Below, one piece after another: positions 13,914 through 17,778 of a stretch of DNA of 32,000 nucleotides (positions within the stretch are counted from its first letter, which is position 1; each line of letters opens with the position of its first letter). Below the pieces are notes generated by a model, which had not been told where the DNA came from, searched no databases, and saw only the letters and a list, made by a program, of their open reading frames with translations. Position numbers and translations under genes: made by a program. The stretch is from Candidatus Harpocratesius repetitus (GTDB lineage Archaea; Asgardarchaeota; Lokiarchaeia; Sigyniarchaeales; Promethearchaeaceae): assembly GCA_021498095.1 (NCBI GenBank), contig JAIZWK010000001.1:1860001-1892000 (forward strand). Reading direction: 5' to 3'.

Positions 13914-15308
13914 CTATTTTTCAAATTCTTGAATCTTTGAAATCACATCATTTAACGAGAGATTGGAATTTTGATCTCCTGTAATAAAATTTTTCAAAGT
14001 ATACCTCTTTTGTTCTTGTTCTTTTGGGCCTAAAAACAAAAGAAAAGGTATTTTCATCCGATTAACAAATTTACTTACTGAGCGAAATGAACGATTCATG
14101 ATATCTATTTCCACCCGAATTCCATTTTTACGTAAAATTTTTGCAATTTCAATCCCAAAAGTTTGTGTTTCTGCTTTTGTTCCTATGAAAATTTCTGATC
14201 TTGGTTGTTCTGGTGGAAATTTCTCTTGACGCTCTAATGCAAGAATTATACGATCAAATCCAAAGGAGAAACCTAATGCTGGAGTTTCTTCACCTCCAAA
14301 GGCGCGAATCATTTCATTATAACGACCTCCGCCACAAATTTGTTTTTGCTTTCCTAAAACCGGAACATCAATTTCAAAAACAATATTTGTATAATAATCT
14401 AAACCTCGAGCAATACCGCAGTCTATTACATAATTCTTGATATCTGCTGCTTCAATAAGAGTGCTAACACGCTGAATTTTAGATTTGCTTATTGCTTCGA
14501 GCGTCTTCGGATATTCGCTAAACAGTTGATTTAAACGAGATATTATATCTGCAGATTTCCCAGTCATATATAAAAGTTGCTCCAAGCGTTCAATAATTGC
14601 TTGTGGGATCTTCTCTTCTTGCATCGATCCATAATAATCATTAAGAATGTTTTGTTCTGTCTGTTCTTCGTCCAATGCTCCTATTTCTAATTTTCGGAGC
14701 AGACTTGTGATTCTATCAACTATTCCAAATATCTTTTTTTGCTGTGATGGCGAAAGTTTTTCTTCCTCCAAATATGATCGTAATATGGTTAGATCATTAA
14801 TTCTAAGAATATAATCTTGCATTTCAAACCGTTCCATAACATTCATTGCGACAATTAACATTTCTGCATCTGCTGTGGCTGTATCCGCCCCAAAAATTTC
14901 AATTCCTGCTTGAGTAAATTGTCTAAAACGTCCAGGTGCAGGTTCATCATATCGAAAACACGGACCAATATAGTAGTATTTTTGAGGTTTGGGTCGATAC
15001 ATTAATTCACTTGTGATATAAAACCGCGCTAAAGATGCAGTATATTCAGGACGGAGCGCATAAAGTGCTGGATTTTCATCGGCGCGGTGTTTTGGAGGAT
15101 CATAAAATGTAAAAATATCATTAATGATTTTTTCACCAGATCTTTTTTTATAAATTTCGAAAAACTCATACATTGGCAGTTCAATTTGCTCAAAACCAAA
15201 AGATTGAAAGATTTTTTCAAGTTTGATATAAACTTCTCGTCTTTTCTTCATCTCTTCAGGTAGAAAATCAATAGTACCAGAAGGTCTCTGTAAATTTATT
15301 TTTTCCAT
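13914..15308 (-). CDS. hisS: Histidine--tRNA ligase
   Basis: PSGTIDFLP, LRPEYTASLAR, motif 2 CFRYDEPAPGRFRQFTQAGIE, ARGLDYYT, ICGGGRY, motif 3 PALGFSFGFDRI, C-terminal anticodon-binding domain. Confidence 0.98.
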   Translation of the reverse strand: MEKINLQRPSGTIDFLPEEMKKRREVYIKLEKIFQSFGFEQIELPMYEFFEIYKKRSGEKIINDIFTFYDPPKHRADENPALYALRPEYTASLARFYITSELMYRPKPQKYYYIGPCFRYDEPAPGRFRQFTQAGIEIFGADTATADAEMLIVAMNVMERFEMQDYILRINDLTILRSYLEEEKLSPSQQKKIFGIVDRITSLLRKLEIGALDEEQTEQNILNDYYGSMQEEKIPQAIIERLEQLLYMTGKSADIISRLNQLFSEYPKTLEAISKSKIQRVSTLIEAADIKNYVIDCGIARGLDYYTNIVFEIDVPVLGKQKQICGGGRYNEMIRAFGGEETPALGFSFGFDRIILALERQEKFPPEQPRSEIFIGTKAETQTFGIEIAKILRKNGIRVEIDIMNRSFRSVSKFVNRMKIPFLLFLGPKEQEQKRYTLKNFITGDQNSNLSLNDVISKIQEFEK

Positions 15309-15725: not shown

Positions 15726-17030
15726 GTGAAAATTATTGAACGAATCCAAGCTTTTGATGTTGTACGCGGTTTTGCGGTAATTTTTATGGTTATTCTTCAT
15801 ACCGGTCTTCATGAATGGCTTGGTGCACAAGAACTTGAAGGTGGGGAACAGCAGGCTGATCCCGTAATGGGCTTCCTTATCTTCTTTTTGACAATCGCAG
15901 GAGTCTATTCTACAATATTAGTGGCTGTTAACAGCTATATGTTTTATCGACGTATAGAATCAGGAAAAAATACTCCTACTCAGCTTACATACTATGGGCT
16001 TTTTCTCGGAATATTTTTAATAGCGCTGAATTTCGTGTTTCGGATATTTTTAAGTGGCGATTCTGGTTGGTTATATTTTTTAGTTAAAAATGGAAATCCC
16101 ACCTTTTCAGAGCCATTTTGGCTTGTAAGTAGTTCCGCTTTAACAATTTTAGGTTTAAATTCTATCTTAGTCCCCCTTATTATGCGAATTCTTAATTCTC
16201 GACTTACAAGTGGATTGAAAAATCGTCAAGTCTATGTTATTCTCTTTTGGATGGGTTCATTAATTTTATTATTAACATTACCTTTCCGTTGGATGGGAGC
16301 TCCTGTAGTTGATTCGTTAATTGATTCTCACCGCTATGTATTAGCATGGATTCTCGGTTGTTTTGTATATGATAATTTTCCTCTATTCCCATTTGTAGCT
16401 TATGCTTGTTTTGGTGCTATTTTAGGTATTGCTTTAGCACGAAAAGAAAAACCTAAATATATTTTAGAGTATACATGGTTTCAAACAATATTTTGGTTCG
16501 GAGTTGGATTTCTTGGAATGTATTCTCTTGGGGGTATTCATCCCGGCTTAATCTATGAAACTTCTCGAATTGCTCTATTGGAAGATTTCTTTAGGCATAT
16601 CACTCAGTTGGGTGTGGTGTTTCTTTTCTTTAGCTTGGCATTATCCATCGTCGATTTCGCACCTCATGATAGAAAAATTCGCCGTATTAAAGGATTTCGT
16701 TTTATTACTCGTTATGGAATGATTTCACTCACAGTATATATTTTTGAGGCGTTTTTTTCTGGGTTAATAACTGGTTTATTAAATTTAATCCCTGCATTTC
16801 ATAATTGGAATGCTTCTCTTATGTGGGTAATTGTATTAGGTGTTGTTTTAGCTGGTTTATGGGGTGTAGCGGCTAAATTCTGGGAGAAAGTGGGATATAA
16901 GTATTCTGTGGAATGGTGGTTAATTTGGATCGCAGGAAAATTTTCGGGAAAAAAGAGTGAGAAATATCAAATGGAACGGATTTCACAGCAAGATTCATCT
17001 AAACTTGCTGAACCTGAAAAAATATCATAA
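15726..17030 (+). CDS. Multi-pass membrane protein, DUF1624 / HGSNAT-like acyltransferase family
   Basis: RIQAFDVVRGFAVIFMVILH N-terminal signature, FPLFPF and SLTVYIF segments, many hydrophobic helices; AGGTGA SD before the GTG start. Confidence 0.8.
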   Translation: MKIIERIQAFDVVRGFAVIFMVILHTGLHEWLGAQELEGGEQQADPVMGFLIFFLTIAGVYSTILVAVNSYMFYRRIESGKNTPTQLTYYGLFLGIFLIALNFVFRIFLSGDSGWLYFLVKNGNPTFSEPFWLVSSSALTILGLNSILVPLIMRILNSRLTSGLKNRQVYVILFWMGSLILLLTLPFRWMGAPVVDSLIDSHRYVLAWILGCFVYDNFPLFPFVAYACFGAILGIALARKEKPKYILEYTWFQTIFWFGVGFLGMYSLGGIHPGLIYETSRIALLEDFFRHITQLGVVFLFFSLALSIVDFAPHDRKIRRIKGFRFITRYGMISLTVYIFEAFFSGLITGLLNLIPAFHNWNASLMWVIVLGVVLAGLWGVAAKFWEKVGYKYSVEWWLIWIAGKFSGKKSEKYQMERISQQDSSKLAEPEKIS

Positions 17031-17212: not shown

Positions 17213-17312
17213 TGGCCCGACCCGGAATTGAACCGGGGTTATACGGGTTTAGCTGCTTGAAGATGCATCAAACATCCACAACCGTACCGTCTAGCCACTA
17301 ACATATCGGGCC
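17213..17312 (-). tRNA. tRNA-His(GUG) with 28-nt intron at 37/38 (intron 17248-17275); discriminator A73; CCA not encoded
   Basis: Acceptor GGCCCGA/UCGGGCC, U8, D-loop AGUGGCUA, anticodon stem UACGG/CCGUA, loop UU-GUG-G|C, T-arm CCCGG-UUCAAUU-CCGGG; 72-nt mature body plus intron with bulge-helix-bulge geometry. Confidence 0.93.
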
Positions 17313-17778
17313 TGCGTATACAAATGAATGATTAAAAGAATCATAATTGGCTAAAAAAATTTGCGGCACATACAATGAAATTTTAAATTTAGATAATTTA
17401 AGAATAAGAGGATTTAGGAAAATTTAATTTTTATGATTTTTTGACTATTTTTAAGAATGAAGGATCAATTAAGAGAAGCCTTATTTTTTAAATTATTTCA
17501 ATATTATCGTTCAAAAAAATCTCATTGACAATTTCATTGAAGTTTTAGAGCAAAACATACACTATTTATTAAAAGAAAAATATTACAATTAATTTAGAAT
17601 GTAGATTTAAAGGTCTTTGATATTTTAAATATAACTAAAAATATGCAGAACAAAGAATAAAAAAATTCACGAATATAATATCATATACTATTAAATGCAA
17701 AATTATTCGTAGTTCTTAAAAACAGAAACATTAAATCTTATTTGGTTGGTGTAGAAAATCCCTCTTTTTTTTATCTTC

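Follow-up and report, generated by a model that had tools for sequence, protein, structure and literature searches.

Guanosine at position -1 (G-1) is treated as a near-universal identity mark of tRNA-His. According to published reviews, C73 is universal in archaeal tRNA-His and A73 arose in early eukaryotes, and the only organisms listed as lacking G-1 are a group of Alphaproteobacteria, Trypanosoma brucei and Acanthamoeba castellanii (PMC3245924, PMC6471195, PMC9976931). A paper from 2026 remarks in passing that archaeal tRNA-His can have either C73 or A73, without mention of Asgard archaea (PMC13433404); in a full-text literature search we found no paper treating tRNA-His identity in these archaea. 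The structural basis of G-1 recognition has been described for the HisRS-tRNA complex of Thermus thermophilus, in which Gly72-Gly73, from the D-R-G-G-R loop of the opposite subunit, line the G-1 pocket, Arg115 and Arg122 of motif 2 hold the G-1 phosphate, and Gln117 touches the backbone at 71/72 (PMC4357726). In the HisRS of Caulobacter crescentus, an enzyme that functions without G-1, Asp-Asp takes the place of Gly-Gly and is reported to block the G-1 site (PMC4357726). T. brucei HisRS has likewise been reported to be G-1-independent (PMC4338351).

The tRNA-His gene analysed here lies, together with the HisRS gene hisS, in a 32,000-nucleotide stretch of DNA (the window) from the closed genome of the Asgard archaeon Candidatus Harpocratesius repetitus, 4,361,485 bp in size. 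It resembles the C. crescentus pair (PMC3064791, PMC4357726) in having A73, no encoded G-1, no Thg1, a single and presumably co-evolved HisRS, and no Gly-Gly in that enzyme. The two systems differ in that the host of the window is an archaeon and its HisRS pocket is altered by an insertion and not by Asp-Asp. Moreover, the C. crescentus tRNA-His has G1:U72 and a 9-nt D-loop with U20a (PMC3064791), whereas in the window tRNA the pair is G1:C72 (in some relatives A1:U72) and the D-loop has 8 nt and no U20a. With the cytosolic pairs of T. brucei and A. castellanii (PMC4338351, PMC3561963) it would share a tRNA-His without G-1 and the absence of a Thg1 acting on it; however, T. brucei has U73 and keeps a KGGH pocket, and both organisms are eukaryotes in which this state is clearly derived. 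The general eukaryotic system, in which Thg1 adds an untemplated G-1 to a tRNA with A73, is similar with respect to A73 and the missing encoded G-1, but the window genome has no Thg1 homologue, and its HisRS is not of the eukaryotic type and lacks the GG pocket kept by human HisRS. Finally, the canonical archaeal states (G-1:C73, or C73 with a templated G-1 added by a Thg1-like protein, TLP) share the tRNA scaffold, the intron type and the RNase P context with the window; they differ from it in having C73 and a G-1 that is encoded or TLP-added, as opposed to A73, a non-G base at -1 and no TLP. From the comparison of sequences presented below, we consider it probable that Asgard archaea contain G-1-independent HisRS/tRNA-His pairs, and that these arose more than once.

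The features of the locus are collected in Table 1. The mature tRNA comprises 72 nt, to which the intron adds 28 nt, and CCA is not encoded, according to the sequence and ARAGORN. In the 7-bp acceptor stem, GGCCCGA/UCGGGCC, positions 17306-17312 pair with 17214-17220, and G1 is base 17312. U8 and A9 are followed by a D-arm (UGUU/GACG, loop AGUGGCUA), an anticodon arm (UACGG/CCGUA, loop UUGUGG...C) with the anticodon GUG, a variable region of 4 nt, and a T-arm (CCCGG/CCGGG, loop UUCAAUU). Around the intron, the fold runs from the 5-bp anticodon stem through two 3-nt bulges, which enclose a 4-bp helix containing one U-U mismatch, to a 7-bp intron helix.

Table 1. Features of the tRNA-His and hisS genes in the window (window coordinates)
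Feature	Position	Strand	Evidence
tRNA-His(GUG) gene, positions 1-73	17213..17312	-	ARAGORN with introns, RF00005, own model R1, covariation
tRNA-His position -1: A, not G	17313	-	sequence read
tRNA-His discriminator A73	17213	-	sequence read; A in 16/16 orthologues of families f1, f4, f7, f16 and f27
tRNA-His 5' exon, positions 1-37	17276..17312	-	
tRNA-His intron, 28 nt, canonical 37/38 site, bulge-helix-bulge fold	17248..17275	-	
tRNA-His 3' exon, positions 38-73	17213..17247	-	
hisS, 464 aa	13914..15308	-	Pfam PF13393, E 1e-48; 1.9 kb downstream of tRNA-His, same strand
HisRS residues 70-81, DPPKHRADENPA	15066..15101	-	alignments
HisRS motif 2 loop, FRYDEPAPGRFRQF	14916..14957	-	alignments

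When introns were allowed, ARAGORN called the gene as tRNA-His(gtg) i(38,28), and an RF00005 search over the whole genome matched exactly window positions 17213-17312 (47.6 bits, E 7.6e-9). Default ARAGORN and the Rfam gathering scan reported no tRNA in the window, because neither tolerates the intron. In an alignment of eight tRNA-His sequences (the window and seven orthologues), 97.6% of the cells were paired, as opposed to at most 52% when the 3' partners were slid, and compensatory changes occurred in 17 of the 21 pairs. Pairing of the acceptor cells was complete (100%), with double changes in six of the seven acceptor pairs; column 73 was A in all eight sequences. The covariation across orthologues therefore fixes the acceptor register and hence the identity of base 73. 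An alternative register, with G17312 as G-1, was ruled out by U8/A14, the 5-bp T-stem and the covariation. The preliminary description of the window had claimed A73 without an encoded G-1, and had argued that U8 and the 5-bp T-stem fix the acceptor stem. The sequence (A at both 17213 and 17313), ARAGORN and RF00005 bear out the first of these claims, and the covariation adds to the basis of the second. The gene is thus a genuine intron-containing archaeal tRNA-His, with a cloverleaf, a GUG anticodon and a bulge-helix-bulge intron at 37/38, in which the canonical prokaryotic marks of tRNA-His identity, an encoded G-1 and C73, are both absent.

Genome-wide, ARAGORN with introns found a single His(gtg) tRNA among 36 tRNAs in total. 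A covariance model of the spliced tRNA-His (R1) gave the window gene 96.7 bits and the next match in the genome, a tRNA-Gly, 43.5 bits, and a structural scan that asked for a UGUGR anticodon loop together with anticodon, T and acceptor stems that match left one credible tRNA. A further ARAGORN call, 'tRNA-His(atg)', proved to be a tRNA-Ala(GGC) with G3:U70 and an intron of about 28 nt near 38/39 (G000:C1:2122063-2122166). A total of only 36 tRNAs implies that ARAGORN missed several tRNA genes with unusual introns, which would leave room for a canonical G-1:C73 tRNA-His of split, permuted or multi-intron architecture elsewhere in the genome, the window copy being silent or decaying. We regard this as highly improbable, given that none of the three methods detected a second GUG tRNA in the closed genome, that the window gene is conserved with compensatory changes in eight genomes, and that the sole HisRS belongs to a non-canonical clade. 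The second canonical tRNA-His envisaged in the preliminary description was, accordingly, not found. Two other ARAGORN calls, at G000:C1:1668826-1668915 and 751326-751433, are a tRNA-SeC(tca) and an intron-containing 'tRNA-Pyl(cta)' that is doubtful, with only 29.3 bits against RF00005.

When 25 Asgard HisRS proteins, covering every type, were run against the genome with tblastn, no HisRS gene besides hisS was found. The interval that separates hisS from tRNA-His holds a 434-aa ORF on the other strand (window 15726-17030, +), which has no Pfam match. Thg1 or TLP was sought in the closed genome in three ways: a six-frame search with PF04446 gave no match (the M. acetivorans control was positive), an HMM derived from six Thg1 proteins of Asgard archaea gave none at E up to 10, and tblastn with six Asgard Thg1 proteins gave a best E of 0.29. 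A candidate RNase P RNA was found at G000:C1:709938-710219 (+) as a full-length match to the archaeal model (58.5 bits, E 1.5e-15), with a score well under the Rfam gathering score of 84, and the RNase P RNA of this lineage is divergent.

The preliminary description had proposed tabulating positions -1 and 73 of tRNA-His across Asgard genomes. About 200 Asgard genomes were searched with three His-specific models of our own, and each candidate was inspected by eye and with ARAGORN. In distant lineages models R1 and R2 proved non-specific, the top matches being tRNA-Gln or Gly, and the search of 150 genomes scored only 27 candidates per genome. Simpler searches were of little use: BLAST of the window tRNA-His against 60 relatives matched only the T-arms of other tRNAs (Val, Pro, Arg), IUPAC patterns (TGTGG or TGTGA plus T-loop) gave chiefly chance matches but recovered the gene of Promethearchaeum syntrophicum MK-D1, and BLAST with the f2 tRNA-His returned mostly tRNA-Asp, together with the f3 gene. 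The gene was not located in G061 (an Odin-sized closed genome), G071, G095, G087, G067, G001 and several other families.

The tabulation gave A73 with a non-G base at -1 in 16 genomes, G-1:C73 in six, and C73 with T at -1 in one. A73 was found in every tRNA-His gene located (16/16) in five families: the window's own family f1 (the window, G002, G004, G006, Lokiarchaeum ossiferum and P. syntrophicum MK-D1), f4 (Sigynarchaeum springense and G022), f7, the Heimdallarchaeaceae (H. aukensis and H. endolithica, both closed, and four further genomes), f16 (G109) and f27 (G156). The 1:72 pair in these genes is mostly G:C, and A:U in three. Since A73 is conserved across five families, the state of the window tRNA is a lineage trait and not an error. 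A sequencing or assembly error at 17213, which the preliminary description had considered, is refuted by this conservation, which includes four other closed genomes, and its probability is practically nil.

The encoded G-1:C73 state was found in six families with one genome each: f2 and f3, of the same order as the window, f8 (labelled 'Asgardarchaeia'), f9 (Thorarchaeota), f19 (NCBI label Crenarchaeota/Thermoproteota) and f24 (conflicting NCBI labels, Thorarchaeota and Heimdallarchaeota). The third state belongs to the Sif/Borrarchaeum-type genome G097 of family f18, whose tRNA-His (G097:C1:161784-161854, L197) has C73 and T at -1, and which carries a Thg1-family gene (G097:C1:153867-154244) 7.5 kb away. 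This tRNA-His sits directly behind another tRNA, and the layout of tRNA and Thg1 is the classical arrangement for templated addition. All three ways of handling position -1 therefore occur within the Asgard phylum. In the PF04446 survey, 16 of 400 Asgard genomes had a match, and the five A73 families, with 63 genomes between them, had none (0/13 in f1, 0/4 in f4, 0/31 in f7, 0/12 in f16 and 0/3 in f27). One of the two possibilities offered in the preliminary description, a Thg1 with eukaryote-type untemplated activity, is thus not supported, as a homologue was found neither in the closed genome nor among these families.

Two of the tRNA-His genes carry inserts at non-canonical sites. That of G041 (f3, G-1:C73, A37; L218:1423-1525) has an insert of about 30 nt in the variable region, and that of G022 (f4, A73; L112:1501-1601) has an intron inside the T-loop.

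The base at -1 in the 16 A73 genes is T in nine, A in five and C in two. The encoded base, A in the window, could in principle be kept on the mature tRNA if RNase P cut at a shifted site or if transcription began at -1, with a HisRS that takes any N-1. The HisRS of Aeropyrum pernix has been reported to accept G-1, A-1 or C-1 (review PMC9976931), and the T found in nine of the 16 genes would be able to pair with A73. The base at -1 is nevertheless not conserved and fits the AT-rich leaders, A-1 is unable to pair with A73 in the window tRNA, and retention of -1 by RNase P depends on a -1:73 pair (PMC3245924, PMC4338351), and we find this reading quite improbable.

In five genomes of the window's family, tRNA-His and hisS share a strand, the tRNA being located upstream at a distance of about 1.9 kb in the window, 1.5 kb in G002, 0.3 kb in G006, 4.7 kb in P. 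syntrophicum and 9.4 kb in L. ossiferum. The linkage of this co-evolving pair is conserved.

The HisRS of the window is altered at two sites that contact the G-1 region in T. thermophilus. The DPPKHRADENPA loop, at the site of the canonical D-[KR]-G-G-R, is seven residues longer than usual and has no GG, and in the motif 2 loop, FRYDEPAPGRFRQF, Ala stands at the position of Gln117 and Glu at that of Arg115. Both sites are altered throughout the clade formed by f1 and f4, where the pocket loop lacks GG and exceeds the usual length by 7 to about 20 residues, and motif 2 reads D-E-P-[A/K/T]-x-G-R. A search of 1.8 billion representative proteins found the two altered sites together in the eight closest clusters only (P0001-P0008, 37-61% identical to the window enzyme); D-K-G-G-R is absent from all of them, P-[A/Q/E]-P-G-R is found instead, and the next relatives carry canonical motifs. 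The motif 2 arginines (GRFRQF in the window enzyme) are retained in all Asgard HisRS compared. The window HisRS matched the Thermoplasma and Staphylococcus enzymes (E 2e-49) better than the human enzyme (E 1e-24), and it has neither the GG pocket nor the DNPAMTRGR loop of the eukaryotic type. In the tree of Asgard HisRS, the clade of the window nests among archaeal enzymes.

The Heimdall-type HisRS (about 500 aa; f7, f16 and f27) differ from this pattern in keeping P-Q-[K/R]-G-R, including the motif 2 Gln, and have EE, DE, DD, SE or FG in place of GG. A HMMER pairwise alignment with the Thermoplasma structure 1WU7 places DD opposite GG, and these acidic pairs are similar to the Asp-Asp pocket of C. 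crescentus. Their closest PDB match is the Thermoplasma HisRS, followed by the trypanosomal one. By contrast, the HisRS of Asgard genomes with G-1:C73, or with C73 and Thg1, have KGGR, KGDR, KG or GQ in the pocket and mostly P-Q-x-G-R in motif 2. Exceptions among the G-1:C73 genomes are G089 (f19), whose pocket aligns poorly, and G149 (f24), which lacks the motif 2 Gln and has GQ in the pocket.

On a maximum-likelihood tree of Asgard HisRS, A73 maps to three clades and requires at least three changes: f1 with f4 (support 100/99), f7 with f16 and f27 (99/97), and the enzyme of G004 (f1) alone, which is of a eukaryote-like type. The G004 enzyme is sister to that of G149 (f24), and the best PDB match of this type is human HisRS (E 3.6e-70); in G149 the eukaryote-like type is paired with a canonical G-1:C73 tRNA-His. 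G004 represents one genus of f1 in which HisRS was swapped to this type (L176), and its tRNA-His (L090) has A73, and A37 instead of G37. The correlation between tRNA state and HisRS covers 23 scored genomes, which are related to one another and are not independent samples.

These alterations bear on the question of whether G-1 might still be present on the mature tRNA, added opposite A73 by an enzyme unrelated to Thg1 or diverged from it beyond recognition, with a HisRS that depends on G-1 as in eukaryotes. A G-adding enzyme other than Thg1 could escape homology searches. Eukaryotes do combine A73 with G-1, the window HisRS keeps the conserved motif 2 arginines, and the state of the pocket motif is not always a guide to G-1 dependence. 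We nevertheless judge such an addition unlikely: neither the closed genome nor any of the 63 genomes from the A73 families yielded a PF04446 match, the nucleotides added by characterised archaeal TLPs are templated, which would lead one to expect U opposite A73 (PMC3245924), and the G-1 pocket loop is replaced or acidic in the A73 HisRS clades.

We favour a G-1-independent pair, the other possibility named in the preliminary description, because tRNA-His and HisRS are each encoded once, A73 is conserved, and A73 co-occurs with HisRS clades that lack the Gly-Gly motif. In the window's clade the loss of the motif 2 Gln also counts in this direction, as do the linkage of tRNA-His with hisS and the presence of a candidate RNase P RNA in the genome. 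The support is indirect, the mature 5' end and the independence of the enzyme being deduced from the genes. Several observations point the other way. The window HisRS retains the motif 2 arginines that bind the G-1 phosphate in T. thermophilus, and the Heimdall-type enzymes retain the motif 2 Gln. The pocket dipeptide is also an unreliable marker: T. brucei keeps KGGH, E. coli (NG) and S. aureus have only one Gly, G149 has GQ, and two A73 genomes have FG and GK. Gly-Gly was dropped as a strict marker of G-1 dependence on account of the T. brucei, E. coli and S. aureus enzymes.

Under the favoured explanation, the window gene would be the sole and functional tRNA-His of the archaeon. Intron removal and ordinary RNase P cleavage would yield a mature tRNA-His that starts at G1, ends in A73 and has no G-1. 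This tRNA would be charged by a co-evolved HisRS with no need for G-1. The clade of that enzyme is confined to the Promethearchaeum/Lokiarchaeum family and Sigynarchaeum; within it, an insertion replaced the pocket loop and the motif 2 Gln was lost. As in C. crescentus, histidine would then be specified by other elements, probably by the GUG anticodon and by A73 or the acceptor end.

The preliminary description had further suggested a bearing on the origin of the eukaryotic system. Eukaryotes might have inherited A73 from an Asgard ancestor whose tRNA-His had A73 and no G-1, untemplated addition of G-1 by Thg1 being imposed later. This keeps some plausibility because A73 is found both in the Lokiarchaeum/Promethearchaeum family and in the Heimdallarchaeaceae. 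We consider it doubtful, however, and prefer convergence, because the distribution of A73 is patchy, three HisRS clades are involved, and the eukaryote-like HisRS is paired with G-1:C73 in one genome. The presence of A73 in Asgard archaea stands, and its bearing on eukaryotes is weaker than had been implied. As for the proviso that A73 might be common and already reported in the lineage, it is indeed common, and our search turned up no earlier account of it in Asgard archaea.

The state of this tRNA-His points to an undescribed archaeal way of marking the histidine tRNA. It extends to the best-studied Asgard archaea, since P. syntrophicum MK-D1, L. ossiferum and Heimdallarchaeum all have A73, no encoded G-1, no Thg1 and a HisRS altered where G-1 binds. 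Two of these A73 organisms are in culture, which makes direct testing possible. If correct, our interpretation would represent the first rewiring of histidine identity in archaea, one that arose more than once; all three modes of acquiring G-1 identity or dispensing with it would coexist in one phylum, and A73 would not be exclusive to eukaryotes within the archaeal-eukaryotic lineage. The Asgard pairs may also supply further candidates for orthogonal HisRS/tRNA pairs.

Gly-Gly is also missing from a further set of HisRS clusters, P0009, P0011, P0012 and P0024 (528-551 aa) and P0037, P0039, P0044, P0047 and P0048 (about 500 aa), in which it is replaced by TDEG, TPEE, TGEG, IDEG, SDAG, VDAV, SDQF and CDGA. 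Judging by these motifs, the clusters may represent further G-1-independent lineages.
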